From Propionibacteriaceae bacterium (GTDB lineage: Bacteria; Actinomycetota; Actinomycetes; Propionibacteriales; Propionibacteriaceae): a DNA stretch of 64,000 bases. Shown here piece after piece: positions 7,639 through 59,155 of the stretch. Under the pieces are notes generated by a model that saw nothing but the letters and a program-made list of their open reading frames with translations, did no database searches and was not told the DNA's origin. Numbering within the stretch: the first letter of the stretch is position 1; every line of letters begins with the position of its first letter. A program made the translations under genes and the position numbers. The stretch spans positions 10,913 through 74,912 of the forward strand of contig JBJMIR010000114.1 of the NCBI GenBank assembly GCA_045806785.1, given 5' to 3'.

Positions 7639-7646
7639 GTGTTTGG

Positions 7647-9368: not shown

Positions 9369-9397
9369 ACATCTATTAGAACACGAGTGCGATTAAT

Positions 9398-9417: not shown

Positions 9418-9451
9418 ACCTCAGCGACCAAGAATCCCACGCTGCGTGGGC

Positions 9452-10291
9452 CTACATGTCCATGCCGCCGTTGACGCCCCAGATCTGCCCGGTGATGTAG
9501 GAGGACTCATCGGCGGCAAGGAATCGTACGATCCGCGCGACCTCTTCCGGTCGGCCGAACCGACGCAACGGAATCTGTCCCTTGAGCTTGTCGAGCACCT
9601 TCTCGGGCACCGCGGCGACCATCTCGGTGTAGGTGTAGCCCGGGGTAACGGTGTTGACAGTGAGCCCGATGCTGTCGTCATCGAGCTTCCCGGCGCGTTC
9701 CAGCAAGAAGGCTGCCTCGCGAGCGAACGTCTTGGTCAGCCCGAAGAGGCCAGACTTGGAGGCCGCATAGTTGGCTTGGCCAATGTTGCCGATCTCGCCA
9801 ATGATCGAGCTGACGTTGATGATCCGGCCGCTGCCGCGCTCGACCATGTGTCCCAGCACAGCCTGAGAGAGGAAGAAGGCGCCTGAAAGGTTCACATCCA
9901 GCACCTTGTGCCAGTCATCGTCGGTCAGCTTCAAGATCGTCTTGTCGATGGTGATGCCGGCATTGTTGACCAAGATGTCCAGCCGGCCGTATTGCTCCAT
10001 GACTTCGTTGACCACCCGGCGGCAATCGTCCGGATTAGCAACGTTGCCGCGGTGGGTGCTGACCGGTGTGGACCATCTGGCCGCAAAGTCCTGCGCGAAC
10101 TCCTTTGCCCGCTCCACGTTTCCGCTGAAGCCGGCCGCAACCGTGGCGCCGCGCGATGCGAGCTCTTCGGATATGGCGGCGCCGATTCCCCGGGTACCAC
10201 CGGTGACCAGGGCCACCCGACCGATGAGCTTGGATCCCCTTGCCAGGCCGGCGGGCTCCTCGGCGACGTCGACTGTGGCTGATTCGCTCAT
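9452..10291 (-). CDS. Short-chain dehydrogenase, 3-oxoacyl-ACP / acetoacetyl-CoA reductase-like (FabG family)
   Basis: Contains TGGTRGIGAAI (cofactor loop), NNAG and YAASKSG (catalytic YxxxK). AGGAGG sits 6 nt before ATG 10291. Confidence 0.8.
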   Translation of the reverse strand: MSESATVDVAEEPAGLARGSKLIGRVALVTGGTRGIGAAISEELASRGATVAAGFSGNVERAKEFAQDFAARWSTPVSTHRGNVANPDDCRRVVNEVMEQYGRLDILVNNAGITIDKTILKLTDDDWHKVLDVNLSGAFFLSQAVLGHMVERGSGRIINVSSIIGEIGNIGQANYAASKSGLFGLTKTFAREAAFLLERAGKLDDDSIGLTVNTVTPGYTYTEMVAAVPEKVLDKLKGQIPLRRFGRPEEVARIVRFLAADESSYITGQIWGVNGGMDM

Positions 10292-10387
10292 GTTGTGCCT
10301 CCTGGGATAGCTCACGAAGATGTGATCGGGGGTTTATCTGATCCTCGCGCATTGCCTGATTCAGGCACAACCGGGGGCACCAAGAAG

Positions 10388-11797
10388 TTAAGCGATCAGC
10401 CTGTCTACTTGATCACCGTAGCCGTCCAGGATTCTCGTCGGATCGGCGCCCAGAACATGATCGAGAAGTGTGGCGTAGATCGACCGAAAGTCCGTTCCGG
10501 CCTTCAGGTCGCCGTCATCGAGATCGGTCAGGCTCGGCTCTGCACCGAAGAACCCACCGCGTACGCCGCGACCGAGCAGGAACACTGGGCCGGCGGTACC
10601 ATGATCAGTTCCATCGCTTGCGTTGGCCAGCACTCTGCGGCCGAACTCGGAGTAGATCATGGTGACGACCTGCCGGCCACGCTCGCCCGCGGCAAGCCGG
10701 CGATGAAAGCCGGTCAGCGCCGCATCCAGCTCGGCAAGCAGCCGCTGTTGAGTCGCTCGTTCATCGGAGTGGGTGTCGAAACCACCGAGAGAGACCGAAT
10801 AGACCCGGGTCGGAACGCCCATCTCGATCAAGGTTGCGACCAGGTCCAGCTGTGCCGCCAGCTGACCCTGTCCGCCGGCCGAGGCGCCCTGGTTTTCTTG
10901 ATCATCGGGATCGGTTGTTGGAGTCGCGGATGGCTGTCGATTCTGTGCCGGCCCGAAAGTGCCGACCGCGGCCTGCAGATCGGCGAACGATCGTGCGGCA
11001 CGGGCGCGCCAGACGTCGTCGTCGCTGCTCGGCTTGCCAAGCAGTGCCACAGCGCGATCGAGCACGTTCTTAGGCATCCGAAGACCGCCGATCGGGAACG
11101 ACGCCGCGGCCAGCTTCTCGCCGGCAAGCATGGGCGGGACCAGAGAGTCCACTGAAAGCGCGATCAACGGATTTGTGGTTGTCGCGTCGAGCCAGCGCCC
11201 TAGCCACCCGGTGCTGACGGCAGATTGCGGTGAGGCGCTCTGCCAGATCGCCATTGATCGGAAATGACTGCGGTCGGGGTACGGATAGCCCACGCCGCGT
11301 ACGATGGCGAGCTCCTTGTTGCCCCACAGCTCATGTAGCCCTTTCATGCCCGGATTCAGGCCGAGCCCTTCACCAAGATCGAGTACGTCAGAGGCCGCGT
11401 ACGCCAGCTCCCCGCGGGCGGATTGGTAGGCCGCATCGCCGGCCGGGATGACTGTATTGAGCCCGTCGTTGCCGCCGTAGAGAGTGATGATCACCAGGAC
11501 GCCGTCAGCGGGATCGAGCGGTGTCTTGGCCGCCGCGGATACCAGATCCGACCAGTGCACCTGCGTCGCGCCGGCGGCGATCCCAGCAGCTCCCACAACG
11601 CCGCAGAAGGTAAGGAAGCGGCGCCGGGTGACGGGACTGACGGTCGTCTTGAGTTGTTCTGACTTCGTGATAGCTGGTGACTTGGCTGGCTCGTGCCCTT
11701 CGACAGGCTCAGGACCCGTTCCTGGTGACGGTCCCGGTGGGGGCTGGTGCCACGGCATGGGTGGGCCGGGAGGTCCTGGGATCGGGTTATAGGACAT
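10388..11797 (-). CDS. DUF1501 (sulfatase-like) protein with a twin-arginine signal
   Basis: Contains RRRFLTFCGVVGAAGIAAGA (Tat motif), GGFDTHSDE and YSEFGRR motifs. ATG 11797 lies directly after the DUF1800 stop. The N-terminus is Pro-rich. Confidence 0.75.
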   Translation of the reverse strand: MSYNPIPGPPGPPMPWHQPPPGPSPGTGPEPVEGHEPAKSPAITKSEQLKTTVSPVTRRRFLTFCGVVGAAGIAAGATQVHWSDLVSAAAKTPLDPADGVLVIITLYGGNDGLNTVIPAGDAAYQSARGELAYAASDVLDLGEGLGLNPGMKGLHELWGNKELAIVRGVGYPYPDRSHFRSMAIWQSASPQSAVSTGWLGRWLDATTTNPLIALSVDSLVPPMLAGEKLAAASFPIGGLRMPKNVLDRAVALLGKPSSDDDVWRARAARSFADLQAAVGTFGPAQNRQPSATPTTDPDDQENQGASAGGQGQLAAQLDLVATLIEMGVPTRVYSVSLGGFDTHSDERATQQRLLAELDAALTGFHRRLAAGERGRQVVTMIYSEFGRRVLANASDGTDHGTAGPVFLLGRGVRGGFFGAEPSLTDLDDGDLKAGTDFRSIYATLLDHVLGADPTRILDGYGDQVDRLIA

Positions 11798-11807
11798 GAT
11801 CAAGTTC

Positions 11808-13250
11808 CTAACCGGAGACGATGTATTCGGGTGAACAGGCGGCAACAGCGATTGCCAGGGGGAGCCGGCCGGCAACCTGGCTGATGGCATCCGCACTCCG
11901 CGCCGAAAGATGATCAATGCCAAGGAGTCGGCGGATGTATTCCACCCGCTGCCGAGCAGGCGTCTTTGTTGCCTCACTCGGCAGCACGGCTCGCTCGGTG
12001 ATCAGACGTGCCGTCTGAACTCGAGCCAGTGCGGCACCGGTTGTCAGCCACCCGCCGCCAGATGGCCAGCCGCCCACGCTCGGCGGCAGGAAAGGAAGCT
12101 GGCCCATGCCACGCAGATGTGTCAGCAGCTGGCGAGCCGGCTTGTCTGCCAGCTCGCTTGGCCGTACGGCAAGGGCACGCATCAGGCCGACCGCCCATTC
12201 CACGGGCTGCTTGACCAGCGAATTCTGTTCATCGTGGAACGCTGGTTCGGAGGCAATCGCCTCCAGCAGCGAGGCGATGCCACGCTCGTACGCCCGACGT
12301 AGCCGCGCCTTGGCCTCGGGCGCCGGCGAGGTCGCTGACACGAGTCGGAACCAGACCCGGGAGATGACGAAGCTCGCGCACTCTGGCTGACGAAGAACCA
12401 GCTCGGCGAACGAGGCGGCGTCGAAGTCGCCGTCCTGGCCGAGGATGTGCTTGCTACTGGAGTCGTGCAGCCTTGGCCGGAACATCGCCGAGCCGTCGGT
12501 CCGGTTGACCTTCCAGCCGGTCAGCGCCCGGGCTGCCTGCTTGACGTCGGACTCGGTGTAGGGGCCCTGGCCCAACGTGAAGAGCTCCATGAACTCTCGA
12601 GAGAGGTTCTCGTTGGGCGCTTTTGCGGTGTTGTCGTTGCCGTCGAGCCAGCGCAGCATCGCCGGGTCGACGATCATGGCCTGGGCGAGCGCCGAAAAGT
12701 GGCCGAGACCTAGTCGGCGCAGGCTCTGGTTTTGGCGGAGCATCAAAGAGGCCATCCGTACCTTGCGGATGCTGGTCGCGAAATGGCCGTGCCAAAACCA
12801 GGTCATCCGTTCGCTCAGCTGATCATCGGCTTGCACCATCCGATCCAGCCACCACACGATCAGTTGCTGGCGTTGCTGGCGCATCTGCTGGCGCCACGCC
12901 TTCTTTTCCTCCTCTGGCGGTTTGTTTCCGGGTGCCTTCTTGGGACGCGGGATCCAAGGCAGGTCCGGCGGTGGGATTTGATCGGCACCGACCTCGCCGT
13001 CACCGGGAGACAGGTACTGCTCGAGCGTCGCTGTGAGCCCGCGCTGCTGCACCTCGACAAGCGCACTGCCGGCGAGACCGAATCCAAGTCTGTCGCCCAG
13101 GCGCCGTACGACGGCATCCTCGCTCAGTTGGCTCATGGCGACAGGGTCGGTCAGTCGACTGCGAAATCGGAGTCGCGGCAGGCGATCCTTCAGCAGATCA
13201 ACAGGTTTGCGCCTGCCCGCTCGAGGAAGGGCGAACTTGAGGACGCTCAT
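11808..13250 (-). CDS. DUF1800 family protein
   Basis: FWHGHFATS motif and the RLGFGLAG start region are typical of DUF1800, the usual partner of DUF1501. The start is uncertain (13250 or 13313). Confidence 0.7.
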   Translation of the reverse strand: MSVLKFALPRAGRRKPVDLLKDRLPRLRFRSRLTDPVAMSQLSEDAVVRRLGDRLGFGLAGSALVEVQQRGLTATLEQYLSPGDGEVGADQIPPPDLPWIPRPKKAPGNKPPEEEKKAWRQQMRQQRQQLIVWWLDRMVQADDQLSERMTWFWHGHFATSIRKVRMASLMLRQNQSLRRLGLGHFSALAQAMIVDPAMLRWLDGNDNTAKAPNENLSREFMELFTLGQGPYTESDVKQAARALTGWKVNRTDGSAMFRPRLHDSSSKHILGQDGDFDAASFAELVLRQPECASFVISRVWFRLVSATSPAPEAKARLRRAYERGIASLLEAIASEPAFHDEQNSLVKQPVEWAVGLMRALAVRPSELADKPARQLLTHLRGMGQLPFLPPSVGGWPSGGGWLTTGAALARVQTARLITERAVLPSEATKTPARQRVEYIRRLLGIDHLSARSADAISQVAGRLPLAIAVAACSPEYIVSG

Positions 13251-43168: not shown

Positions 43169-43215
43169 TTGAGCCTAGTACGCTCAAGTACTAAGTTGAG
43201 TGCCACAGACTCAAG
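43169..43215. promoter_or_regulatory. Two HAIR (HspR-associated inverted repeat) operators upstream of dnaK
   Basis: TTGAGC-N7-GCTCAAG (43169-43188) and TTGAGT-N7-ACTCAAG (43196-43215) match the known HAIR consensus CTTGAGT-N7-ACTCAAG. Confidence 0.85.
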
Positions 43216-43251
43216 AACAATCCCAATTTCCTAGCTGGAGGAAACACAATC

Positions 43252-45129
43252 ATGGCTCGTGCAGTCGGCATTGACCTCGGAACGACCAACTCCGTCGTCG
43301 CCGTACTTGAAGGTGGAGAGCCCACCGTCATCCCGAACGCCGAAGGCTCCAGAACCACGCCATCGGTCGTCGCATTTGCGAAGGGCGGCGAGGTACTTGT
43401 TGGCGAGGTCGCCAAGCGCCAGGCCGTCACGAACGTCGATCGCACTATCCGCTCCGTCAAGCGTCATATGGGTTCGGACTGGAAGCAGCGGATCGACGAC
43501 AAGGATTACCGTCCCCAGCAGATCAGCGCCTTCGTCCTGCAGAAGTTGAAGAGGGACGCGGAGGCCTACCTGGGTGAGCAGGTCACCCATGCGGTCGTCA
43601 CCGTGCCCGCCTACTTCTCCGACGCACAGCGCCAGGCCACCAAGGAGGCCGGTGAGATCGCGGGTCTGGTCGTGGACCGGATCATCAACGAGCCGACGGC
43701 CGCCGCGCTCGCGTACGGCCTGGACAAGACCGATCAAGATCAAACGATCTTGGTCTTCGATCTCGGTGGTGGCACCTTCGACGTCTCGCTGCTGGAGATC
43801 GGGGACGGCGTCTTCGAGGTGAAGGCCACCAACGGTGACAACCGGCTCGGTGGCGACGACTGGGATTCCAGGATCGTCGACTGGCTGGTGAAGCAGTTCA
43901 AGAACAAGAACGGCACCGACCTGTCCCAGGACAAGATCGCTCGGCAGCGGCTCCAGGAGGCCGCCGAGAAGGCCAAGATCGAACTCTCCTCGGCCAGTGA
44001 GACCCAGATCAACCTGCCCTACATCACTCTGGGGCAGGCCGGTCCGCTGCACCTGGAGGAGAAGCTGACCCGCTCGGAATTCCAGCGGATGACCTCTGAT
44101 CTTCTTGATCGGTGCCGCGCGCCGTTCCATGCGGTAATCTCCGACGCCAAGATCAGCGTCGGCTCGATCAACCACGTGATCTTGGTCGGTGGATCGACCC
44201 GGATGCCTGCCGTGGTTGAGCTCGTCAAGGAACTGACCGGTGGCAAGGAGCCGCACAAGGGTGTGAACCCGGACGAGGTCGTCGCTCTTGGCGCCAGCCT
44301 GCAGGCCGGTGTGCTGAAGGGCGAGGTCAAGGACGTTCTGTTGCTCGACGTCACCCCGCTGAGTCTCGGCATCGAGACCAAGGGCGGCGTCTTCACCAAG
44401 ATCATCGAGCGCAACACCACGATCCCGACGAAGCGCTCCGAGGTCTTTACCACCGCCGATGACAACCAGCCCTCGGTGATGATCCAGGTCTACCAGGGTG
44501 AGCGTGACTTCGCGAAGGACAACAAGTCGCTCGGCAACTTCGAGCTGACCGGTCTGCCGCCTGCGCCGCGCGGCGTGCCTCAGATCGAGGTCGCCTTCGA
44601 CATCGACGCTAACGGCATCGTGCATGTGAACGCCAAGGACCTGGCGACCGGCAAGGAGCAGTCCATGCAGATCACCGGCGGCTCCGCGCTCGGCAAGGAG
44701 GACATCGACCGGATGGTCAAGGAGGCCGAGTCGCACGCTGAGGAGGACCGCAAGCGGCGCGAGGCCGTCGAGCTCCGCAACGAGGCCGACAACCTGGTCT
44801 TCCGCACCGAGAAGCTGCTCAGCGAAAACGCCGACAAGATCAATGACGACGTCAAGACGCCTGTCGAGGAAGCGATCGCTGAGGTCAAGAGCGCTCTGGA
44901 AGGCGAGGACGACGACCGGGTCAAGGCTGCCGTAGAGAAGCTCAATACGACCAGCGCGCAGCTGGGCCAGGCGATGTACGCGGCGGCGCAGGCCGGGCAG
45001 CAGGCTCCGTCGGAGGCCGGTGGCCCGAGTGAGCACGCCGACTCCAACGGCGAGAGCAGCAGCACTGAGGAGGACGTTGTCGATGCCGAGATCGTGGACG
45101 ACGACCAGACCTCGAGTGAGGCGCGGTGA
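43252..45129 (+). CDS. dnaK: Molecular chaperone DnaK (Hsp70)
   Basis: Contains [23 protein letters not shown] and [11 protein letters not shown]. 625 aa, full length. Confidence 0.98.
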
Positions 45130-45902
45130 GCGTCCCGGAATCTGAGCATCGGCACGCTGAAGCCGAGTTCGAACAGCGAGGCCCGACCGTACGGGATCGG
45201 CGTCGCATCGATCCGGAGACCTACGAGGTACGGGAGCCGCAGGAAACTGCGGCTCCTGCCGCAGCGGCCCCAGAACCTGAAACCCCAGCCCCCGAAACCC
45301 CTCCCGTACCAGATCTCGAGGCGGAAGTGAAAGAACTCACCGACAAGCTCGCCGAGCGGACCTCTGATTTACAGCGGCTCCAGGCTGAGTACGTCAACTA
45401 CAAGCGCCGGGTCGACCGTGATCGTGATCTTGCTCGCAAGGTGACGATCGAAGGTGTGCTGAAGGACTTCCTTTCAGTGCTCGACGACGTTCGTTCGGCT
45501 CGTGAGCATGAAGAGCTCAACGGCGGCTTCAAGGCGGTCGCGGAGGAGATCGAGCGGGTCACCTCCAAGTACGGCCTGGAAAGCTTCGGCGAAGCGGGCG
45601 ATCCATTCAACCCGCACATCCACGAGGCGCTGCTGCATGCGCATGCCGATGGCATCGACGGCCCGACTTGCGTGGAGATCTTGCAGCCCGGCTACCGCAT
45701 CGGTGATCGCATTCTGCGGCCGGCGCGAGTTGCGGTTGCCGAGCCGGAACCGGAGTCGATGCGTGCCGAGCCTGTCGAAGCACGGATCGAGGAGTCTCCG
45801 ACAACCTCAGGCGAAAATGCTGAGAGCTCGGCGGAGCGGCTGGTCGATGCGACAGGTGAGCCAGGTGCCGACAATCCCGATGCCGACGCCGACCAGCGGT
45901 GA
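45126..45902 (+). CDS. grpE: Nucleotide exchange factor GrpE
   Basis: GTGA overlap with the dnaK stop. Contains [15 protein letters not shown] and [16 protein letters not shown] motifs. Confidence 0.95.
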
Positions 45903-45989
45903 GCTGTTCTGCGCCGAAGCAGAGGGACACTGTCTGGAGGAGGAAATCAACCAGGCATCGGTAGTTGATCATCTCGAAGGGAGGCGTGA

Positions 45990-47147
45990 GTGAGTACCAA
46001 GGACTGGATCGAGAAGGATTACTACAAGGTCCTCGGTGTCTCCAAGGACGCCTCCCCTGAGGAGATCAAGAAGGCGTACCGCAAGCTGGCGCGTGCCAAC
46101 CATCCGGATCAAAACCCCGGTAATACGGCAGCCGAGCAGCGCTTCAAGGAGATCTCAGAAGCCAACGACGTGCTGTCCGATACGGCAAAACGCAAGGAGT
46201 ACGACGAAGCTCGGCGGTTGTTCGGCTCCGGTGGCTTCCACTTCCCGCCGCGCAGCGGTGCCCGGACCGGCGGCCCATCGGTCGACGACCTGTTCCGCAA
46301 CGCCGGTGGCGGCCTAGGCGACATCTTCGGCGGCCTGTTCAATGGCGGCCCTACCACCCAGACGACACGCTTCTCCACTGCCCGTGGTCCGCGCCGCGGC
46401 AGCGACGTCGAGGGCGAGGTCATGGTGGACTTCGTGCAGGCGATCGAAGGCGTAACGGTCGGGATGCAGATGGTGTCGGAGACAGCGTGTGAGGCGTGTC
46501 GCGGTACCGGCGCCCGCACTGGAACGATTCCGCGGGTATGCCCCACCTGTGAGGGCAGCGGTATGCAGACCTCGACCTCCGGCGGCGTCTTCGCCGTCAC
46601 CGAGCCGTGCCGTGAGTGTCGTGGTCGGGGAATGATCGTCGACGACCCGTGCCCGGTATGTCTTGGCTCTGGTCGCGGCAAGTCCACCAAGACCATGCAG
46701 GTCCGGATTCCCGCGGGCGTTACCGACGGCCAGCGCATCCGCCTCAAAGGCCGCGGCGGCGCCGGAGAGAACGGTGGCGCTCCTGGCGACCTGTACGTCA
46801 CTGTGCATGTACGGCCGCATCCCATCTTCGGGCGTAAGGGCGACAACCTGACCCTCACCGCGCCGGTCACCTTCCAAGAGGCCGCGCTAGGTGCGGAGAT
46901 CGAGGTGCCAACCCTGCATGGCGCGCCGGTCAAGCTTCGGCTGTCGCCGGGCACTCCCAATGGGCGCACGCTGCGGGTGCGCGGCAAGGGTGTCAGCAAG
47001 CGTGACGGCAGTAAGGGCGATCTGCTCGTCACCGTCGAGGTCTTGGTGCCTCAGGCGCTCAATGAACAGGCTCGGGAGGCCCTGAACTCATACGCGGAGG
47101 CGGTCGGCTCGGTCAATCCCAGGGCGAAGCTCTTCGCCGCGGGATGA
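45990..47147 (+). CDS. dnaJ: Co-chaperone DnaJ
   Basis: J-domain DYYKVLGV .. HPD, Gly-rich linker, and four CxxCxGxG zinc-finger repeats. Confidence 0.97.
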
Positions 47148-51440: not shown

Positions 51441-52283
51441 GTGAAGTCGGACAGTCTGGTGCTTCGACCCGGCAGCGAGAGTGCGCTCCTGGTACGCGAT
51501 CTGGCCTACCCGCGCGCCTTCACACTTCGAGTCGGCCGGACCGACCAGTCCTACGTCGATCTTGATGACCCACTGCGGCTGGAGTTCGACTACATGCAAC
51601 GGCTAGTTGATGTTCTGGACAGCGTGGCTGAACCGGGGCAGCGGTTACGCGTCGTGCACGTCGGCGGTGCCGCTATGACCCTGCCGCGTTATGTCGCCGC
51701 GACGCGGCCGACCTCAGCGCAAATAGTCTTAGAGCCTGATACCGAGCTGACCGCCTTTGTTCGGCGGCATCTGCCACTACCGACACGCAGTGGGATCAAG
51801 GTGCGCGGTACCGACGGCCGGCACGGCATCGCCGAGCTGGATGACGGGTTCGCGGATTTGATCATCATCGACGCCTTCGTCGGCGCTCGGGTGCCGGCCG
51901 ATGTTACGACAATAGAGTTCCTCATCGATGCCCGGCGAGCGCTCAATGATCATGGACTGATCATGATCAATCTGACTGATCGCGCGCCGCTGGCATATGC
52001 GCGCCGGGTGTTGGCCAGCGTGAGTCAGAGCTTTCGGCACATGGTGCTTTGTGCGGAATCATCCACCCTGAAAGGCCGCCGGTTCGGGAACGTGATCATT
52101 GGCGGCGGTGCTCGACCACTGCCGTACGCGACGATCGCCGAGCGCGCCGGGCGCTCACCCTTTCCCTATCGGGTGCTACGCGGTGCGCGGCTGAATCAAT
52201 TGCTCGCTGACAGTGCCCCTTTCCGTGACGGGGATGCTCAGCAGTCACCAGAGCCGGGGCGCGAAATGCGGCACCTTGCGTGA
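51441..52283 (+). CDS. Spermidine-synthase-like (class I methyltransferase fold) protein
   Basis: Contains VVHVGGAAMTLPRY .. LIIIDAF motifs. GTG follows AAGGAG. Confidence 0.6.
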   Translation: MKSDSLVLRPGSESALLVRDLAYPRAFTLRVGRTDQSYVDLDDPLRLEFDYMQRLVDVLDSVAEPGQRLRVVHVGGAAMTLPRYVAATRPTSAQIVLEPDTELTAFVRRHLPLPTRSGIKVRGTDGRHGIAELDDGFADLIIIDAFVGARVPADVTTIEFLIDARRALNDHGLIMINLTDRAPLAYARRVLASVSQSFRHMVLCAESSTLKGRRFGNVIIGGGARPLPYATIAERAGRSPFPYRVLRGARLNQLLADSAPFRDGDAQQSPEPGREMRHLA

Positions 52284-52316
52284 TAGACGTGGAAGATCTT
52301 GATCAAGAGCAAAGAC

Positions 52317-52829
52317 TCAGGTGTGATCTTCGACCAGGGCTGCATATCTCGTCAGGTATAGCGGCCAGCCCCGCTCTCCATCGGCCCCCTCGCTGACCGC
52401 CTCCCAGCCTGGACCGTGTCGCTCGATGTAGCGGTGTTCCAGCTCGACGCGGGTCCGCTGTGCGCTCTCAGCGAGAAACTTGACTTCGACCTCACTTGTC
52501 AGCGCCGGGTCGGTCTCCAGCTGCCACTGCGGGCTGATTCCCCAGCTGAACACCACCAAGTTCGGCGGTTCGTAGACCAAGACCCGGGCCCAATGGCACT
52601 CGCTGCCGTCTATGGCACGGTCGTAGATATGGCCGCCGACCCGCGGCTCGAAGACCGTCTCGGCGATCGGTGCCGCGAGCAGATTGTGCTCCGGCGGCTT
52701 GAAGTCACCAAAGCGCTCGGTGAATACCCGAAAGGCTCGGTCCACCGGGGTGTTCACCATGACCTGATGGCGAACCCCCGTGGACTGGGGCTGGGTGGAC
52801 TGGGGCTGGGTGGACTGGGGCTGGGTCAT
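52317..52829 (-). CDS. SRPBCC (Aha1/START-like) protein with an N-terminal (TQPQS)x3 repeat
   Basis: Contains VNTPVDRAFRVFTERFGDF .. GWEAV.. core. ATGA overlap with the arsR-like stop. Confidence 0.7.
   Translation of the reverse strand: MTQPQSTQPQSTQPQSTGVRHQVMVNTPVDRAFRVFTERFGDFKPPEHNLLAAPIAETVFEPRVGGHIYDRAIDGSECHWARVLVYEPPNLVVFSWGISPQWQLETDPALTSEVEVKFLAESAQRTRVELEHRYIERHGPGWEAVSEGADGERGWPLYLTRYAALVEDHT
52781..52825. repeat. Perfect 15-bp tandem repeat x3 (TGGACTGGGGCTGGG), in frame
   Basis: Copies at 52781-52795, 52796-52810 and 52811-52825. It encodes TQPQS three times at the N-terminus of the SRPBCC protein. Confidence 0.9.
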
Positions 52830-53149
52830 GAACTGTCCTCCGTCGTTTCTTCTGCAATTTCTGCGTAGCCGGCGAGCGCTCGCTGCCAAAAGGTGTCCAG
52901 CTGATCGCGCAGGGCGGCTACCGCAGCTGGGTTGAGCCGATAGATCCGTCTGGTACCGGACTGTCGCTCGGTGACCAGACCGGCGTCCTTCAGTACTTTC
53001 AGGTGTTGTGAGACCGCGGACCGAGTGACCGGCAGACGTTCCGCGATCTGCCCGACCGCCTGAGGCCTCTCGGCCAGAGAGGCAACGATGGTGCGCCGCG
53101 TACCGTCCGCCAATGCGTCCCAGGGATCCATTGATCGGTTAGTGTTCAC
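52826..53149 (-). CDS. ArsR/SmtB family transcriptional regulator
   Basis: Winged HTH VGQIAERLPVTRSAVSQHLKVLKDAGLV. The start is 53149 or 53131 (second Met). Confidence 0.85.
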   Translation of the reverse strand: MNTNRSMDPWDALADGTRRTIVASLAERPQAVGQIAERLPVTRSAVSQHLKVLKDAGLVTERQSGTRRIYRLNPAAVAALRDQLDTFWQRALAGYAEIAEETTEDSS

Positions 53150-53169
53150 TAACGGTTAGTCTGCACTAA
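53139..53169. promoter_or_regulatory. Two adjacent palindromes, TTAGTG-N2-CACTAA and TTAGT-N4-ACTAA (candidate ArsR operators)
   Basis: Located at 53139-53152 and 53156-53169, at and just upstream of the arsR-like start. Confidence 0.5.
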
Positions 53170-53188
53170 TAGATGGCAGCCGTCAAGC

Positions 53189-54352
53189 TCAGCTACGCAA
53201 GGTTTTCAGCCTGCTGATCGCCTCATCGAGCACCTGCTGCTGCTTGCAGAAAGCCCAGCGCACGTACGGCCGACCCGCTTCAATGCGGTCGTAGAACACC
53301 TGATGAGGGATCGCCACGACTCCGCAGCGTGTGGGTAGATCCCGACAGAACTCCACGCTGTCGCTGTAACCCAGCGGCCGCACATCGGTGGTCATGAAGT
53401 ATGTGCCTCGAGGAATCACCGGTTCCAGCCCGATCGACCGCAACCCTTCGGCGAATTGATCACGCCGGTCTTGAAGATCAAGTCGAGCCTTCTCCACCCA
53501 CTCATCGCCCTCGTTGAGAGCGCAAGCAACGGCCGGTTGGAACGGCGCGCCAGAGACATAGCTCAGAAACTGCTTCACCGCGGTGATCTCGTTGATCAAC
53601 TCCGCAGTGCCAAGCGCCCAGCCGATCTTCCAGCCGGTCACCGAAAACGTCTTGCCTGCCGACGAGATACGCACGGTCCGTTCCCGCATTCCGGGGAAAC
53701 TCGCCAAGGGCAGGTGTTCGGCGTTATCGAAAGTCAGATGCTCATACACCTCGTCGCAGATAACCACCACATCGTGCTGCACGGCCAGTTCGGCGATCAA
53801 TGCAAGATCAGCGTGATCCAGCACGACTCCTGTCGGGTTATGCGGAGAGTTGATCAACAGCGCCTTGGTCTTGGGCGTGAACGCGGCTCGGATTTCGGCA
53901 TGGTCGAGCCGGAAGTCCGGTCCGAAGAGTCCCACGCCAACGCGTCGCCCGCCCGCCAGCTCGATCGATGCGGCGTAGGAGTCGTAGAAGGGCTCCAAGG
54001 CGATGACCTCGTCGCCTGGGTTGACAAATGCCAAGATCGACGCGGCTAACGCCTCGGTGGCACCCGTGGTGACCAGGACCTCCGTCTCCGGGTCGAAGCT
54101 CAGGCCGTACGTTCGGCTGCTGTGAGCGGCGATGGCCTGTCGCAGCGGCAGGATGCCGCGGCCTGGCGGGTACTGGTTGACACCACTGGCGATCGCCGTC
54201 CGGGCCTCCTCAAGCATGAAGACCGGGCCGTCGGTGTCTGGAAAGCCTTGACCGAGGTTGATCGACTGAGTGGCCAAGGCCCGTGCTGACATCTCGGCGA
54301 AGATGGTGGTCGCCGCCGAGCGAATCCGATCGGCTTTCCAGACAGACGGCAT
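53189..54352 (-). CDS. PLP-dependent class I/II aminotransferase (YbdL / kynurenine-aminotransferase-like; often annotated DapC in actinobacteria)
   Basis: INLGQGFPDTDGP N-terminal motif and SAGKTFSVTGWKIGW (PLP lysine region). 387 aa. Confidence 0.85.
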   Translation of the reverse strand: MPSVWKADRIRSAATTIFAEMSARALATQSINLGQGFPDTDGPVFMLEEARTAIASGVNQYPPGRGILPLRQAIAAHSSRTYGLSFDPETEVLVTTGATEALAASILAFVNPGDEVIALEPFYDSYAASIELAGGRRVGVGLFGPDFRLDHAEIRAAFTPKTKALLINSPHNPTGVVLDHADLALIAELAVQHDVVVICDEVYEHLTFDNAEHLPLASFPGMRERTVRISSAGKTFSVTGWKIGWALGTAELINEITAVKQFLSYVSGAPFQPAVACALNEGDEWVEKARLDLQDRRDQFAEGLRSIGLEPVIPRGTYFMTTDVRPLGYSDSVEFCRDLPTRCGVVAIPHQVFYDRIEAGRPYVRWAFCKQQQVLDEAISRLKTLRS

Positions 54353-54429
54353 AGGTCGACCCTAGCCAACGGCGGCGTGCATGAACGATCACGCATGACC
54401 TGCCGCAGCCAACCCTAATGCTCGAGCAT

Positions 54430-54520
54430 CAGTGCACTGTGAGAAGAAGTGCGCGCTTAAGTCGCCATTGAAAAATCTATTGACATATTAAGTGCAGGTA
54501 GAAATAATTAAGTGCACTTA
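54430..54520 (+). promoter_or_regulatory. Near-consensus sigma70-like promoter embedded in AAGTGC-type palindromes
   Basis: TTGACA (54480-54485), a 17-nt spacer, then AATAAT (54503-54508). Palindromes CAGTGCACTG (54430-54439) and TAAGTGCACTTA (54509-54520). ATTAAGTGCA occurs twice (54487-54496 and 54507-54516). Confidence 0.55.
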
Positions 54521-54551
54521 GCAGCGGTGGCTGCGGAGGGGAGGTGGGGAC

Positions 54552-54659
54552 ATGATCATTCAAGAACTATTCCGCCTTCTTGGCTTTCTGGTCACTTTGG
54601 TGCTCGTCTGCCTCATGATCGGCGCGATCCTAGGGATCTTGCTCCTCATGAGCTTCTGA
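54552..54659 (+). CDS. Small hydrophobic peptide, 35 aa (MIIQELFRLLGFLVTLVLVCLMIGAILGILLLMSF)
   Basis: Hand-translated. GGAGGGGAGGTGGGGA lies directly upstream of the ATG. One predicted TM helix. It is below the ORF-track cutoff. Confidence 0.45.
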   Translation: MIIQELFRLLGFLVTLVLVCLMIGAILGILLLMSF

Positions 54660-54671
54660 GTTGGAGTCCGG

Positions 54672-54773
54672 GTGAGCGTGACTGCGGCATCGAGCGTGGT
54701 ACTGGCGCTTCCCACAGGTTGCGGTCGCCCGCCGCAATTCGTTAGACAGTGGCGCGCATGGGGCTGTCTATGA
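54672..54773 (+). CDS. Second small ORF, 33 aa (VSVTAASSVVLALPTGCGRPPQFVRQWRAWGCL)
   Basis: GTG lies 5 nt after GGAG and 12 nt after the first small-ORF stop. It has a signal-peptide-like start with an imperfect lipobox (PTGC) and two Cys. Speculative. Confidence 0.25.
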   Translation: MSVTAASSVVLALPTGCGRPPQFVRQWRAWGCL

Positions 54774-54819
54774 GCGCGCTTAGCAAGTAAGCTAGCTGCT
54801 TAAGCGCGCACTTGTGCGC
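54774..54819. promoter_or_regulatory. Nested palindromes upstream of the XRE-type gene
   Basis: GCGCGCTTAGCA (54774-54785) faces TGCTTAAGCGCGC (54797-54809). GCGCAC-TT-GTGCGC is at 54806-54819. CTTAAGCGCGCACT (54799-54812) is the exact reverse complement of 54448-54461. Confidence 0.5.
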
Positions 54820-54852
54820 CCCTGACCCGACGAGCAGACATTGAGGTCCAAA

Positions 54853-55791
54853 ATGAAGAGCGTCACTGATGCCGACTTGGACGATCTAGGGCAGTTGCTC
54901 AAAAAGGCGCGAGAGCAGTCAGGGCTATCTCAGCGCAAGGCCGCTGAAGCTGCGAAAATTAGCCCGACCTACGTGCGGACTCTCGAATCTAGTAGCAATC
55001 CCAACACAAATAAGCCGTCGCGGCCGTCTCCGGAAGTGCTCTTGGCAATGGGCAATGCTTTGAAAGTTGATCCGGAGATTCTTTTCGACATGGCCGGCTA
55101 TGATCCCGAATTAACCAAGCAGGTTGCGCCAACGATCGGTGACTCTGCGCAAAGAAGTATCGACTCCGACTTAAGAAGGATGCGGGACGCGACCAAGAAA
55201 TTAGATCAGCGACACGACTTTATCAAGATGCAATCGGTCGAACGTTTCAGCAAGTTCACGAAGGAATTTCTAGCAATGGCCGACGGGACCTTCCGATGTC
55301 GGGCGGAGGAGGAGCCATACCTCACAAGAGTGGCCTACTGGCAGGCCAAGTCAACAATACGGGCCGTAAGCTATCAGGATGAGCAATGGTGGGAAAGTAA
55401 GCGTGGCCGCGACTATCTTAGGCTTCACGATGAAGTCCGCAAGAAGAACAATATAGAGATCACTCGTATCTTCTTGGTTCCCGAGGATAGGCAGCCGGAG
55501 CTGAAGAAGACATTCGAAAAGCATGTGGAGCTGGGGATATCTACATTTGTTATGTCCCCCCGCGACGTGGGGGTCGAGCTTTGTCGAGACCTTGTGCTCT
55601 TCGACGACGAGCTGCTTCGAGTTGGTGGCTCGCCACGAATTGACGATCTCAAGGCGGCTGAGTTTACTGATAATCGTGCTCGTATCGAACAAGCGCGTGG
55701 AGACTTTGAGGCTCTCCATCGAATTGCGAGCAACACTCCTACCGAAGCACAACACATACTCGACTTGATCGATTCAGGCACGCTGGCCTGA
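54853..55791 (+). CDS. XRE-family HTH protein fused to an unrecognised C-terminal alpha/beta domain (312 aa)
   Basis: HTH at LGQLLKKAREQSGLSQRKAAEAAKISPTYVRTLE. C-terminal strand/helix pattern (TIRAVSY, IEITRIFLV, ISTFVMS, RDLVLFDDELLRV). GAGG lies 6 nt before ATG 54853. Codon use is AT-shifted. Confidence 0.75.
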   Translation: MKSVTDADLDDLGQLLKKAREQSGLSQRKAAEAAKISPTYVRTLESSSNPNTNKPSRPSPEVLLAMGNALKVDPEILFDMAGYDPELTKQVAPTIGDSAQRSIDSDLRRMRDATKKLDQRHDFIKMQSVERFSKFTKEFLAMADGTFRCRAEEEPYLTRVAYWQAKSTIRAVSYQDEQWWESKRGRDYLRLHDEVRKKNNIEITRIFLVPEDRQPELKKTFEKHVELGISTFVMSPRDVGVELCRDLVLFDDELLRVGGSPRIDDLKAAEFTDNRARIEQARGDFEALHRIASNTPTEAQHILDLIDSGTLA

Positions 55792-55968
55792 AGATCGACC
55801 GCCTTCGTTATCACTCCAATCGCACATCGCCGAGTCGAGTGGCTTTCAACACACGAGCTGAGCAAACCCCTTAATGTCAGCCTCGTCGCGTGTGGCGGGG
55901 CAGGCGACTCACAAAGTGACGAGTGGGATGCCTGTTCAGAGCTAGGCAGTGCTTGTGGAGTCGGGGGA

Positions 55969-57087
55969 ATGGACACGTGTGTGATTGCTGCTGGTGCTTC
56001 GAAAGCGTCACAACTCGCGGGTCAACAGGTCGTTGTTGTAGGCGCTGGTGTGATTGGTCTGTCTACAGCTATCGAACTGCGGCTCGCGGGTGCGAACGTA
56101 ACGGTCTTCACATCACCGAACTACCCGATGGTCTCGCCAATGGCGTGCGCCCTATTCCTTCCGTGGATGGGACCGGACAGCGCTGTCCTCTGGAGTGGCC
56201 CTCTGGAGCGGGCAGTCGTGAATAGCTGGCACCGCTATGAATCGTTGCTGAATGAGTTCGGCACAACTGCCGGGATACGGTCCGCCACGAACCACGAGTA
56301 CTTAGGAGCTGGGGATCCCGATCCTCCTGACAGGCTTCGCTCTATTCTCACACCGTCCACCATATCACCCTGCAATGTGCAATTTGTCGGAAACTACTAT
56401 GACCGCGTTTGGAAATTCGAAACAATTGTAATTGACATGAGTTGCTATATGTCCTGGCTTGGCATGAAAGCATTGTCTCTGGGCATCGCTATCAAGAAGC
56501 AACATCTGGAATCCCTCAGCGATACTTTCGATCACGAGACGTATGTGATTGTCAATTGCTCCGGACTTGGTGCGAGGACGCTAGCTCCCGACAAGGCCGT
56601 GAGGCCGGTAAGGGGTCAAGTGCTTTTCTTTAAGCCAATAGATCAAGATGTCCTAATCAACTTCGTGGGGATTGGCATAGGCGAGTATTGCCTGATTCCG
56701 CGCATCACTGATGTGGGACTGGGAAGTTTGTTTGAGCAGGAAATCGATTGTGATGAGATTTGGCCCGGACGCTCAGAGCGTAATGAGAGAAGACTTTGGG
56801 CCGCACTCGACGCATTGGTTGAGTTATCTGGTGTGGATCGATCAGCGCTTGAGTTCTCCGGCCGAACGTCAGTTGGTCTTCGTCCTATTCGTGAAGGCGG
56901 TTACAGGCTAGAGGCGCTGTGGCATGGCGACCGTTTGGTCGTACACAATTATGGACATGGTGGCTTGGGAGTAACTGTGGCCTGGGGCTGCGCGAATCAG
57001 GTAGTTGATTTGATACGTAGAGAACTTGCGGGAACAGCGGCAGGAAATCGGGGCCATCGGCGTCCGGAAAGCCTCGACCGAGGTTGA
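55969..57087 (+). CDS. D-amino-acid oxidase (DAO) family FAD-dependent oxidoreductase
   Basis: Rossmann VVVVGAGVIGLSTA. VVHNYGHGGLGVTVAWGCA fits the classical DAO signature [LIVM](2)-H-[NHA]-Y-G-x-[GSA](2)-x-G-x5-G-x-A. The last 12 or so codons read antisense through the aminotransferase remnant. Confidence 0.8.
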   Translation: MDTCVIAAGASKASQLAGQQVVVVGAGVIGLSTAIELRLAGANVTVFTSPNYPMVSPMACALFLPWMGPDSAVLWSGPLERAVVNSWHRYESLLNEFGTTAGIRSATNHEYLGAGDPDPPDRLRSILTPSTISPCNVQFVGNYYDRVWKFETIVIDMSCYMSWLGMKALSLGIAIKKQHLESLSDTFDHETYVIVNCSGLGARTLAPDKAVRPVRGQVLFFKPIDQDVLINFVGIGIGEYCLIPRITDVGLGSLFEQEIDCDEIWPGRSERNERRLWAALDALVELSGVDRSALEFSGRTSVGLRPIREGGYRLEALWHGDRLVVHNYGHGGLGVTVAWGCANQVVDLIRRELAGTAAGNRGHRRPESLDRG

Positions 57088-57125
57088 TCGCCGGCCTGGC
57101 CAGGGCCCATGCGGACAACCCTAGT
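57051..57125 (-). pseudogene. Decayed 5' fragment of a second aminotransferase gene copy
   Basis: The minus strand reads ..LSAWALARPAINLGRGFPDADGP, against ..MSARALATQSINLGQGFPDTDGP in the intact gene. The 15-nt core GACCGAGGTTGATCG is shared (57076-57090 and 54250-54264). The fragment ends abruptly at the islet border. Confidence 0.65.
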
Positions 57126-57146
57126 TCGTCCGCATGCCTCACTGGC

Positions 57147-57566
57147 TCAACTGGCGTCCGCAAGGAAGGAGAGGCGTACCTCGCGGTTCGCGTTATCGAC
57201 GTTGAGATCGACCATGGCAACCGACTGCCACGTACCCAAGGCCATTTCGCCGCGAACGACCGGAATCGTGGCGTACGGCGCGATGAGCGCTGGCATCACA
57301 TGTGACCGGCCATGGCCGCGGGAGCCGTGGGCGTGTCGCCAGCGGTTGTCGGCGGGCAACAGGTCCCGCAGTACAGCCAGCAGGTCGTCGTCGCTGGCTG
57401 AGCCCAGTTCGATTAGCGCGATACCTGCGGTGGCGTGTGGGACGAACACGTGCAGCAGGCCGTCGCCGCCGGCCGCCGCATCGCGCAGAAAGGCCGCGCA
57501 CTGCGGGGTGAGATCGTGGACTGCTTCACTGCGTCCCGTGGTCACCTCGATCACCGTGCTCTTCAT
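57147..57566 (-). CDS. YjbQ/UPF0047 family protein (secondary thiamine-phosphate synthase-like)
   Basis: Contains LLHVFVPHATAGIALIE .. HGRSHVMPAL .. LGTWQSV, the conserved YjbQ pattern. 139 aa. Confidence 0.8.
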   Translation of the reverse strand: MKSTVIEVTTGRSEAVHDLTPQCAAFLRDAAAGGDGLLHVFVPHATAGIALIELGSASDDDLLAVLRDLLPADNRWRHAHGSRGHGRSHVMPALIAPYATIPVVRGEMALGTWQSVAMVDLNVDNANREVRLSFLADAS

Positions 57567-57679
57567 GGCTTTATCTCTTACCCATCGACAGCTGCCGGCA
57601 ACGAAGCCGGGATCTGTCGTCGTAGCGCGGGAGTTAGGCTCGATTGGACGAGGGTGTCGGCAGACCAGGGAGGTTCTTG

Positions 57680-59155
57680 ATGTTGAACGCGACGGAAACG
57701 GACTTGCTGGAGTCAGTACCGGATGGGCTGTTCATCGGCGGTGAATGGCGTTCGGCCGCCTCGGGTTCCACCTTGAAGGTGTACGACCCTGCGACCGCCG
57801 AGGTGATCAAGACCATTGCCGACGCAGGCGTCGAGGACGGTGCCGCAGCCTTGGACGCAGCGGTCGAATCTGCCGCCGACTGGGCCAAAACGCCACCTCG
57901 TGAGAGGGCAGAGATTCTGCGCCGCGCCTTCGAGCTAATCCGAGAGCGCCAGGACGAAGTCGCACTGTTGATGACGCTCGAGATGGGCAAGCCGCTGGCC
58001 GAGTCCAAGGCTGAAGCCACGTACGGCAATGAGTTTCTGCGCTGGTTCTCCGAGGAGGCGGTCCGGATCTTCGGCCGCTACGGCGTCAATCCCGAGAGCA
58101 CCGGCCGGATGATCGTTTCGCAACATCCGGTCGGCCCCTGCTTCTTGATCACTCCATGGAACTTTCCGCTGGCGATGGCGACTCGCAAGACCGGTCCGGC
58201 GCTAGCCGCCGGCTGCACCGTAGTGATCAAGCCTCCGGAGCTGACCCCGTTGACGACGCTGTACTTTGTCAAGGTCCTCGCCGAGGCGGGCCTGCCGCCT
58301 GGGGTTGTCAACGTGGTCACCACGTCAACATCGGGAAAGGTGTCGGCGCCGATCATCGCCGATCCTCGGCTGCGCAAGTTGAGCTTCACTGGCTCTACAG
58401 AGGTAGGTCGCAAGCTCTATGAGCAGGCAGCCGGCAATATCCTCCGGATCTCCATGGAGCTGGGCGGCAACGCACCCTTCCTGATCTTCGACGATGCTGA
58501 TCTTGGCGCGGCCGTCGAGGGTGCCATGCTTGCCAAGTTCCGCAATGTTGGTCAGGCCTGCACGGCCGCCAACCGGTTCATCGTCCATGAGGCGGTTGCC
58601 GACGAATTTGCAGCCCGGGTGACCGAGCGAGTCCAGGCGTTCAAGATTGGCCGCGGCACCGAGGACGGCGTCCAGATCGGTCCGCTGATCAACGACGATG
58701 CGGTCCAGAAGGCCGACGCATTGGTACGAGATGCGACTGAGCGCGGAGCCAAGGTGCTGACCGGTGGTCACCCGATCGATCGGGCCGGCACGTTCTATGA
58801 GCCGACCGTTGTGGCCGGCGTACGACCCGGCAGCGACATCCTCCGCGAGGAGATCTTCGGACCAGTGCTGAGCATCGTGACCTTCAGTGATGAGGCGGAT
58901 GGCATTCGGATCGCCAATGACACCGAATACGGGCTGGTCGCGTACGCATTTACCAAGAATCTGGCGCGCGGCCAGCGCCTCATCGAATCGCTGGAAACCG
59001 GGATGCTGGGCCTGAACGTCGGCGTGGTGTCGAACGCGGCGGCTCCCTTCGGCGGCGTGAAGCAGTCCGGGATCGGGCGCGAGGGCGGCTTCGAGGGAAT
59101 TGAGGAATACCTGTCCACCAGGTACACCTTGACGCCGAATCCGTTCGCCGACTGA
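57680..59155 (+). CDS. gabD: NAD(P)+-dependent succinate-semialdehyde dehydrogenase (aldehyde dehydrogenase family)
   Basis: Contains ITPWNFP, ELGGNAP and GQACTAANR (catalytic Cys) motifs. AGGGAGG lies before ATG 57680. Confidence 0.8.
   Translation: MLNATETDLLESVPDGLFIGGEWRSAASGSTLKVYDPATAEVIKTIADAGVEDGAAALDAAVESAADWAKTPPRERAEILRRAFELIRERQDEVALLMTLEMGKPLAESKAEATYGNEFLRWFSEEAVRIFGRYGVNPESTGRMIVSQHPVGPCFLITPWNFPLAMATRKTGPALAAGCTVVIKPPELTPLTTLYFVKVLAEAGLPPGVVNVVTTSTSGKVSAPIIADPRLRKLSFTGSTEVGRKLYEQAAGNILRISMELGGNAPFLIFDDADLGAAVEGAMLAKFRNVGQACTAANRFIVHEAVADEFAARVTERVQAFKIGRGTEDGVQIGPLINDDAVQKADALVRDATERGAKVLTGGHPIDRAGTFYEPTVVAGVRPGSDILREEIFGPVLSIVTFSDEADGIRIANDTEYGLVAYAFTKNLARGQRLIESLETGMLGLNVGVVSNAAAPFGGVKQSGIGREGGFEGIEEYLSTRYTLTPNPFAD

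Follow-up and report, generated by a model that had tools for sequence, protein, structure and literature searches.

Work by Hill et al. in 1989 and later studies of phage 21 reportedly placed both e14 and phage 21 in the icd gene of Escherichia coli. In that arrangement foreign DNA lies between two direct copies of one gene end, of which one belongs to an intact gene and the other is dead, and strains with an empty site exist. The same applies to a short islet in a 64,000-nt stretch of contig JBJMIR010000114.1 (GCA_045806785.1, Propionibacteriaceae bacterium), referred to below as the window, in which three genes of atypical composition are lodged between an intact aminotransferase gene (AT) and a decayed piece of that same gene (AT'). 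However, e14 and phage 21 use an integrase of their own, cross over inside the gene and replace its 3' end in register, whereas the islet possesses no integrase, is joined to the chromosome upstream of the start codon, is accompanied by a fragment limited to codons 21-46, and leaves a working gene copy that matches the empty allele.

The pangenome literature describes flexible genomic islets that occupy recombination hot spots among core genes. The locus resembles them in that the content of the slot varies or is lacking in close relatives, the composition is atypical, mobility genes are absent and divergence peaks at the indel, giving way to homogenised sequence further out; it departs from them in the left joint, which is fixed to the nucleotide at a putative promoter box, and in a conserved peptide-regulator pair next to varying cargo. 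We class the locus as a flexible islet of this kind, lying at a recombination hot spot and bearing a scar that is unusually easy to read; its mechanics are ordinary.

Two further bodies of work bear on such scars. Incoming DNA with one region of homology can be integrated by circularisation and a single crossover or by homology-anchored illegitimate joining, both of which have been seen experimentally (PMC3240628), and a comparable homology-anchored model has been proposed for displaced gene ends in variable loci (PMC5361080). The islet resembles one-homology integration (PMC3240628; de Vries and Wackernagel 2002, as summarised in PMC5361080) in that no element-borne enzyme would be needed, crossover of a circle would duplicate the homologous segment around the insert, and an illegitimate end would account for the sharp joint of two unrelated sequences (DAO, or oxidase, 3' end to AT codon 46); those events were observed in laboratory crosses, whereas here the process would have to be deduced from a natural product of some age, now 67 nt shorter and 19% diverged. 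The effector/immunity arrays of the Vibrio cholerae type VI secretion system and the orphan 3' ends of Rhs and contact-dependent inhibition (CDI) loci (PMC5361080) likewise combine a conserved anchor gene with a variable region and with orphaned gene-end fragments left by successive replacements, for which a homologous anchor and an illegitimate far end have also been proposed. Their genes are those of toxins and immunity proteins and the displaced ends are 3' ends, whereas here the 5' end of a housekeeping gene is duplicated and the cargo looks regulatory or metabolic.

The islet and its empty site

The islet is compositionally foreign, encodes three genes and is inserted just upstream of AT. 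Relative to the empty-site allele, the insert (islet plus AT fragment) spans positions 54366-57117, or 2752 bp. An empty site in which yjbQ is directly followed by AT had been predicted in a preliminary description of this DNA, and such sites were indeed recovered. In the same species, contig L107 is 99.3% identical to the window over 2729 nt (51637-54365) and then continues at 57118, while L015 is 99.5% identical across the ALDH and yjbQ genes and then enters the AT start. The same direct join is found in three contigs of a sister clade (clade B; L106, L108 and L111; 88-90% nucleotide identity), which display yjbQ, a single ACCCTAG and AT. In more distant relatives (80-84%), yjbQ is missing as well, and AT and ALDH stand back to back. 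Almost every contig that encodes an identical AT or YjbQ protein has the islet arrangement, at 99.3-99.9% identity; within the species, at least 12 islet-bearing contigs (99.3-99.9%) stand against two empty ones (99.3-99.5%). The islet thus segregates as a presence/absence polymorphism within the species.

Both flanks are host genes. AT (53189-54352, minus strand) encodes an intact class I/II aminotransferase of 387 amino acids (aa; Pfam Aminotran_1_2, E 1.9e-62; NCBIfam PRK07777, 601 bits, above the cut-off) and is a host core gene, with syntenic orthologues in more than 20 relatives; these point to the soil Propionibacteriaceae of the Microlunatus/Friedmanniella group. It is 99.6% identical to AT of the empty-site contig L107. 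On the right, yjbQ (57147-57566, minus strand; Pfam UPF0047, E 5.5e-25) is 99.5% identical in L015. As the loci L016-L038 and L103-L111 show, this gene is itself variably present between AT and ALDH: the window species, clade B and L097 possess it, and it is absent from most of the group at 80-84% identity (clade C), where the gap between AT and ALDH measures about 60-300 nt.

The preliminary description had noted an AT-shifted islet beside the aminotransferase gene, and a formal windowed test bears this out. The G+C content of positions 54366-57039 is 53.85%, compared with a mean of 62.78% (sd 1.01, minimum 60.25) in 554 windows of equal size elsewhere in the stretch (z = -8.8), and the tetranucleotide L1 distance is 0.403 against 0.177 +/- 0.018 (maximum 0.258; z = +12.6). 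The G+C dip is unique within the 64 kb. At third codon positions (GC3), the G+C fraction is 0.54-0.59 in the islet genes and 0.75-0.78 in the neighbouring genes. The tetranucleotide CTAG is avoided by the host, with 50 copies in 64 kb (0.65 per kb) against about 220 expected from base composition; this avoidance is not seen in the islet, where 54359-57125 contains 10 copies (3.6 per kb). The islet is almost certainly an acquired insertion.

A duplicated gene end and two copies of a conserved box

The insert is bracketed by direct copies of the AT 5' region, as the preliminary description had reported. A repeat search delimits them to 54214-54291 and 57040-57117, that is, to 78 nt (against the 66 nt aligned by hand) with 63/78 identical positions (81%). 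Among 300 dinucleotide shuffles of the right copy, the best match anywhere in the window on either strand was 44/78 (mean 39.7, sd 1.2). The edges of the repeat are sharp, in-register identity beyond them being only 10-20%. The 15-nt perfect core to which attention had been drawn carries no weight, since 46% of alignments of 78 nt with 81% identity should contain an uninterrupted match of 15 nt or more. The left copy (minus strand, AT codons 21-46) is the functional one and matches the empty allele of L107 at 78/78 positions; the right copy, AT' (57040-57117, minus strand, in direct orientation with the intact gene), matches either at 63/78.

Each copy is followed by ACCCTAG (54359-54365 and 57118-57124), as had been pointed out; only three plus-strand copies of this heptamer occur in the 64 kb, and the native one is among very few host CTAG sites in the region 50-60 kb. 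The right copy is without the 67 nt that stand at 54292-54358 beside the left one. On the AT coding strand the left box reads CTAGGGT, so that a -10-like TAGGGT lies 6 nt before the ATG, and the islet begins at 54366, directly past the box and 13 nt upstream of that ATG. An integration into the gene end, as originally proposed, is at odds with this position. The box is kept upstream of AT in relatives from all three clades, and every relative shows CAT-NNNNNN-ACCCTAG-TTC at the AT start (window plus strand) with no Shine-Dalgarno sequence; from this conservation we infer that TAGGGT could be the -10 box of a leaderless AT mRNA. The right box is followed by native TTCGT... and yjbQ, matching the empty allele. 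The empty allele therefore has a single ACCCTAG where the insert is framed by two, the pattern of a short target-site duplication, although such doubling would also be expected from a duplicated homology segment. The repeat search found no inverted repeat linking the two ends of 54366-57117, no islet protein matched a transposase family in Pfam or the further profile libraries, and no tRNA or tmRNA was found in the window, in line with the earlier remark that the islet holds no mobility gene.

The two haplotypes also differ immediately beside the joints. In the 6-nt spacer between box and ATG, 12/12 islet-bearing contigs read AGGTCG, whereas all same-species and sister-clade empty alleles examined, and two of the more distant ones shown, read ACCGAG. 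This 4-nt patch (54354-54357) lies 2-5 nt from the box (probability of chance clustering about 3e-8). The islet haplotype further shares changes at 57130 and 57132, 6-8 nt past the right box (clustering P about 1e-3), and outside these patches islet-bearing and empty alleles differ at 0.5% of positions. Haplotype-specific changes at the very joint would be expected if the allele is old or was imported and recombination has since evened out its flanks as far as the joint. The differences at 54343/54344 were also considered as donor sequence and rejected: there the islet haplotype has the sister-clade state, and it is the same-species empty strains that are derived.

Several features of the rearranged promoter region deserve mention. 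The working AT start has retained its box and acquired new upstream DNA, and its 4-nt spacer patch is unique. The complete native, putative promoter region of AT now stands at the right junction (minus strand, 57118-57124), directed into the islet, and an ATG on the minus strand (57111-57109), 7 nt past the right TAGGGT, starts a frame of 36 codons that runs antisense to the oxidase gene of the islet at its 3' end. The same junction holds a predicted hairpin (57095-57150) in which a perfect 9-bp palindrome, CATGCGGAC / GTCCGCATG, encloses a loop containing ACCCTAG and is extended by an outer stem (dG -27.6 kcal/mol, z = -5.0), whereas the empty allele has no such fold (z = +0.5). The positions 57130 and 57132, which differ from the empty alleles, belong to its native arm, and the hairpin appears to have arisen from these two substitutions together with about two in the AT' arm. 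Situated between the convergent oxidase and yjbQ genes, it may serve as their terminator.

Decay and age of the aminotransferase fragment

When compared with 90 other AT genes, AT' matches them at 45-60/78 positions, and the gene of this lineage remains the closest (63/78). Its differences from the intact gene are spread over the three codon positions as 5/4/6, as opposed to 23/23/123 among orthologues, where 73% fall on third positions (P = 0.008), and they alter residues that are invariant in orthologues (NLGQG to NLGRG, PDTDG to PDADG). Both observations indicate a pseudogene fragment drifting without constraint. In this respect the preliminary description, which regarded the right copy as the decayed original displaced from the gene, was correct, the decay being neutral. 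The displacement fares less well: AT' is out of register, covering codons 21-46 only, and its neutral divergence of 19% is about 25 times that between islet-bearing and empty strains of the species.

The raw divergence of AT' (95% interval 0.11-0.30) corresponds to a Jukes-Cantor distance of 0.22. At four-fold sites, islet-bearing and empty strains differ by 0.014, and the distance to the sister clade is 0.47. By these figures AT' would be roughly 25 times older than the flank split of the two kinds of strain and about three quarters as old as the split from the sister clade; AT' is quite probably not a recently displaced original. The age of AT' implies that the islet allele is much older than the species-level coalescence of its flanks. 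It would then be either a long-lived polymorphism or an import from a diverged lineage, the flank divergence having been erased by recombination.

Other derivations of AT' were tried and rejected. A remnant of a cargo aminotransferase is not supported, the 407-aa island aminotransferase of L098 being 26% identical to AT over 97 residues. An extension of AT' beneath the oxidase gene, suggested by a tblastn alignment, did not hold up either: to the left of 57040, nucleotide identity falls to 10-20%, which is the chance level.

The upstream slot in related lineages

The slot upstream of AT is occupied differently in sibling species. It reads AT, peptide, regulator, yjbQ, ALDH in L096/L097; AT, peptide, regulator, 1.1 kb, a second aminotransferase, a 2-hydroxyacid dehydrogenase, ALDH in L098/L099; and AT, peptide, regulator, a 311-aa protein, ALDH in L101/L102. 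In L113, the order is AT, peptide, regulator and a truncated oxidase, and then high-G+C DNA (4070-12522) with an insertion sequence (IS; DDE_Tnp_1), an rve_3-domain protein and a TrwC/TraI relaxase. This last contig was considered as a plasmid-borne islet copy and rejected as such, for it begins with the AT start codon and an ACCTTAG box, and is the same chromosomal slot. In further relatives the AT-ALDH slot is empty or holds yjbQ alone. The sibling-species islands all begin right past ACCCTA(G/A), five island lineages share this left joint, and the homologous islands are likewise low in G+C relative to their own hosts.

Regulators encoded in the sibling-species slots are 57-72% identical at the amino acid level, against 87-90% for the flanking AT genes. 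Their tree does not match that of the host genes neatly, which would mean either that the slot was filled more than once or that its alleles are older than the species. Members of the regulator family reside mostly in the AT slot of sibling species. Module copies in unrelated contexts are present in L100, L112 and L114; in these the oxidase often has a protein of about 300 aa beside it or fused to it, and these copies, too, are low in G+C relative to their hosts. A contig carrying P0020 reads peptide, regulator, full-length DAO and, 33 nt further on, a plus-strand gene, and the P0004 contig displays the regulator followed by 139-aa and 347-aa proteins, a sortase and a phosphoribosyltransferase, with no AT end visible. 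The slot upstream of AT is hypervariable and, on balance, though not by much, appears to be served by general recombination.

Two side observations concern these relatives. The protein of about 300 aa, which has no Pfam match, recurs as a third partner alongside the regulator and the oxidase, although the islet of the window does not have it: it is free-standing in L101 (2256-3191) and L114 (9021-9941), fragmentary in L100 (7167-7610), and fused to the oxidase N-terminus in L112 (3256-5181; 641 aa). In L101, four tandem repeats of about 30 nt (ATGGCGGTCCGAGCCCCTCACATACAGACC) stand at approximately 560-700, upstream in the island, and have been called as a 46-aa open reading frame (ORF; MAVRAPHIQT repeated).

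Origin of the insert

We read the islet as an old, horizontally acquired three-gene module in a hypervariable slot directly upstream of the -10-like box of AT, which would have entered and spread through host general recombination, having no mobility genes of its own. Mechanisms in which general recombination works with a single stretch of AT homology form the family that we favour, with modest conviction. Along one route, donor DNA that started at AT codon 46 and took in the promoter box and the island would have circularised and undergone one RecA-dependent crossover in the AT 5' segment. Along another, a homologous anchor on one side would have been combined with an illegitimate joint on the other, linking the DAO (oxidase) 3' end to AT codon 46. 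Either would leave AT codons 1-46 and the box duplicated on both sides of the island, in the order AT body, H (codons 46-1, spacer, box), island, H' and native upstream sequence. The promoter-distal copy would have remained the working gene start, while AT' would have lost 67 nt (codons 1-20 and the spacer) and drifted neutrally. Later, homologous exchange in AT on one side and in yjbQ/ALDH on the other may have carried the whole allele between lineages.

If the donor was an island-bearing relative and its contribution extended from AT codon 46 to the oxidase end, this would explain why the left joint is common to other islands, why the oxidase joins codon 46 so sharply and has lost its own stop, why a second box precedes the native sequence, and why the spacer at the working start is donor-like. 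Sharp repeat edges and a DAO frame that runs into AT' and ends there would fit a one-homology product, the latter being typical of an illegitimate joint. Several points weigh against this reading. Whether a circle crossed over once, a homology-anchored illegitimate joint formed on either side or the replication template was switched, the expected structure is identical. A deletion of 67 nt that ends exactly before ACCCTAG has to be added. Three joints fall on one rare CTAG motif, which general recombination does not explain and which hints at a site preference; one of them is in L113 (2340-2380), where the oxidase gene breaks off at codon ~247 and continues precisely into CCTAGTTCC, which is native sequence from upstream of AT. 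The regulator tree at the locus does not simply follow the host genes, and all relatives compared are metagenome contigs in which several island right ends are missing.

The scenario closest to the preliminary description is the remnant of a site-specific integrative element, which would have recombined within the 5' part of AT by means of its own integrase and supplied a new end, the original then decaying and the integrase and the rest of the element being deleted later. It accounts for direct copies of the gene 5' region around foreign DNA and for the empty site, it is in keeping with AT' being contiguous with the native promoter box and yjbQ and with the haplotype-specific spacer by the working start, and the L113 slot does hold an IS, an rve-domain protein and a relaxase. 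We consider it unlikely, however, as every testable defining feature other than the repeats and the empty site fails. The joint with the empty allele lies upstream of the ATG and not inside the gene. A replacement end supplied by the element finds no support in the working copy, which is identical to the empty allele across the repeat, only the 4-nt spacer patch being specific to the islet haplotype, and AT' lacks codons 1-20. An integrase-bearing version, for which a search elsewhere had been suggested, was not met among about eight islet variants (L096-L102, L112-L114 and the P0004 context). Among the four relatives with a readable right island end, the complete islands L097, L098 and L101 have no second AT fragment there, and L113 has none within 12.5 kb. 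The perfect core is, as said, statistically weightless. Moreover, the left joint is common to island lineages that have diverged from one another much further than AT' has from AT, and therefore appears older than AT'. An old event with a donor-supplied promoter-proximal end and a displaced resident 5' end is retained as a caveat, because later recombination would homogenise the gene and hide the replaced end. Improbable to a similar degree is a targeted insertion of a cassette at ACCCTAG by a recombinase or transposase acting in trans, with duplication of the site and AT' as a passenger at the cassette end. The exact 7-bp direct repeat around the insert, present once in the empty allele, speaks for it, as do the left joint common to five island lineages, the right joint of L113 (again CCTAG-TTCC), the rarity of CTAG in the host and the near-perfect palindrome centred on the site at the right junction; the 67-nt gap in the window ends exactly before ACCCTAG, and three joints at a CTAG motif are hard to call chance. 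Yet terminal inverted repeats are lacking, the first bases past the site vary between islands and their right ends are wholly different, there is no candidate enzyme nearby (within the L113 DNA examined, no recombinase is tied to the ACCCTAG site), the palindrome is absent from the empty site, and a piece of the neighbouring gene at the cassette end would be an unexplained coincidence.

Because three joints coincide with the box (the left joint of five lineages, AT'|ACCCTAG, and truncated-DAO|CCTAGTTCC in L113), one may go further and regard the CTAG-containing -10-like box as a genuine recombination site, at which a host or trans-acting enzyme repeatedly inserts, trims and swaps integrase-less peptide/regulator cassettes; we hold this to be rather doubtful. 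If true, it would amount to a cassette platform in soil Actinomycetota. CTAGG is a context nicked by very-short-patch repair endonucleases, and the box could be break-prone by way of such nicking; recurrent joints at one rare CTAG motif at any rate raise a small question about recombination hot spots. A further possibility, which we rate as very unlikely, is that template switching in one microhomology-mediated replication event, or else a tandem duplication into which DNA was later inserted, produced two copies of the 5' end of AT around foreign DNA, so that both would have started out as resident sequence. Duplications flanking an insertion are a classic product of template switching, and the neutral codon-position pattern fits a copy initially identical to the resident gene. 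But foreign DNA would be needed as a template at the fork, the left joint common to other islands is left unexplained, and on present data the model is inseparable from the one we favour. That there was no transfer at all, the islet being ancestral, its composition dictated by function and the repeat a chance or convergent similarity, is hardly credible. The repeat does span the most conserved AT motif (INLGQGFPD), but the 63/78 match far exceeds the shuffled maximum of 44, empty sites are present in the same species and in sister clades, and neither the compositional z scores nor the lack of CTAG avoidance fits an ancestral islet; chance similarity and vertical descent are refuted.

Under the favoured reading of entry and spread by host general recombination, the locus offers a case, furnished with an exact empty site and a scar that can be dated, in which a small module devoid of mobility genes persists as a polymorphism and is exchanged between lineages by host recombination only. 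For genome scans it also holds a warning: foreign DNA lying between duplicated gene ends is not in itself a sign of an integrase-driven element.

Islet genes and their possible role

The first islet gene (54552-54659, plus strand) is preceded by GGAGG, has been called in metagenome contigs and encodes a 35-aa hydrophobic peptide resembling a single transmembrane segment (MIIQELFRLLGFLVTLVLVCLMIGAILGILLLMSF). The peptide matched no family in any profile library searched. Homologous peptides precede the regulator in L097, L098, L101, L112, L113 and L115, and a consensus ...GEVLGFLVKLALFFLILGVILG... is conserved throughout the islet variants. Upstream of this gene, the putative regulatory region (54447-54521, plus strand) contains boxes that resemble operators, AAGTGCGCGCTTAAG and a pair of ATTAAGTGCA repeats (inverted and direct repeats I12 and D17). 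A predicted promoter, TTGACA-17-AATAAT at 54480-54508 (scan score 11/12), overlaps these boxes, and TTAAGTGC-type repeats overlap this strong promoter-like site. A predicted palindromic operator (GAGCGCGCTTAGC ... CTTAAGCGCGCACTT; 54770-54813, plus strand; arm I12), with conserved columns in six island variants, lies upstream of the regulator gene.

The regulator (54853-55791, plus strand) is an XRE-family protein of 312 aa, with its ATG at 54853 in an ORF open from a TTG at 54841. Its N-terminal helix-turn-helix (HTH) domain is recognised by Pfam HTH_31 (41.4 bits, cut-off 27) and HTH_3 (36.8 bits, cut-off 23), and the conserved C-terminal domain, modelled by AlphaFold with fair confidence (pLDDT 79.8), has a PLD fold and is tentatively DUF6879-like. 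The window regulator itself does not match DUF6879 (PF21806), but 8/16 homologues do (best E 1.6e-5); no paper in the collection searched mentions this name. Foldseek searches with the C-terminal domain returned the archaeal regulators TrmBL2 and TrmB as the best matches, and also NucT, Nuc and PLD3. TrmB and TrmBL2 likewise combine a DNA-binding domain with a non-catalytic sensor of PLD fold, and TrmBL2 is the best structural match to this PLD/Nuc fold; however, the DNA-binding domain of the regulator is of XRE type and not a winged helix, and sequence identity is 10-12%. An HKD motif, HxK(x)4D, was not found in the PLD-fold domain, whose sole invariant His lies in K-H-V-E-L with no Lys at +2. 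The family is rare: a search of 5.8 billion clusters yielded 18 homologues, and one of 1.8 billion gave about 20 full-length clusters at the 50% identity level. These XRE and PLD-fold proteins represent an almost unsampled family, always paired with a tiny membrane peptide and often with a D-amino-acid oxidase.

The third gene (55969-57087, plus strand) codes for a 372-aa flavoenzyme of the D-amino-acid oxidase family, DAO (Pfam PF01266 DAO, E 2e-23, 83.9 bits with a cut-off of 27.9, residues 21-348). It aligns with solved D-amino-acid oxidases over residues 12-353 (8hy5, E 3e-21), is 31-36% identical to the nearest annotated actinobacterial homologues, and retains the N-terminal FAD-binding GxGxxG motif (VVVVGAGVIGLS) and a C-terminal HNYGHGGLG, both conserved in the alignment. 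Its conserved part stops near residue 353-357, and the last 16 codons and the stop are the antisense of AT'. A DAO relative in L118 has a tail of its own and no AT', on a contig that ends 15 nt past the stop.

In the simplest reading, the regulator would be a ligand-sensing repressor that binds the TTAAGYGC palindromes before its own gene and the peptide gene and controls an amino-acid-oxidising enzyme. Amino acids or 2-oxo acids are the substrates of each of its variable partners, namely oxidase, aminotransferase and 2-hydroxyacid dehydrogenase, and the adjoining host gene also encodes an aminotransferase; this shared substrate class suggests a role of the islet in the handling of D-amino acids or 2-oxo acids. 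The peptide and the XRE/PLD-fold regulator could constitute a new peptide- or ligand-sensing switch controlling a D-amino-acid oxidase. A phage origin was considered and rejected, as no relative of the regulator occurs in 2.9 million viral contigs and PHROGs yielded only generic HTH matches. The same holds for a defence system, PADLOC giving only HTH-level matches, and no structured RNA was detected by Rfam in 53000-58000 at E <= 1.

Other features of the window

The second-highest tetranucleotide deviation in the window is located at about 43200-46200 (L1 0.25-0.26 against a mean of 0.18), with a raised AT skew at about 43-46 kb; that of the islet is far stronger. On the opposite side of AT there is a second indel, of normal composition: between SpeE and AT, positions 52317-53149 encode an ArsR-family regulator and an AHSA1/SRPBCC protein, a pair confined to this species, where L107 also has it, and absent from the sister clade and more distant relatives. 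The N-terminal part of the AHSA1 gene contains three perfect 15-nt tandem copies, GTGGACTGGGGCTGG (52780-52826).

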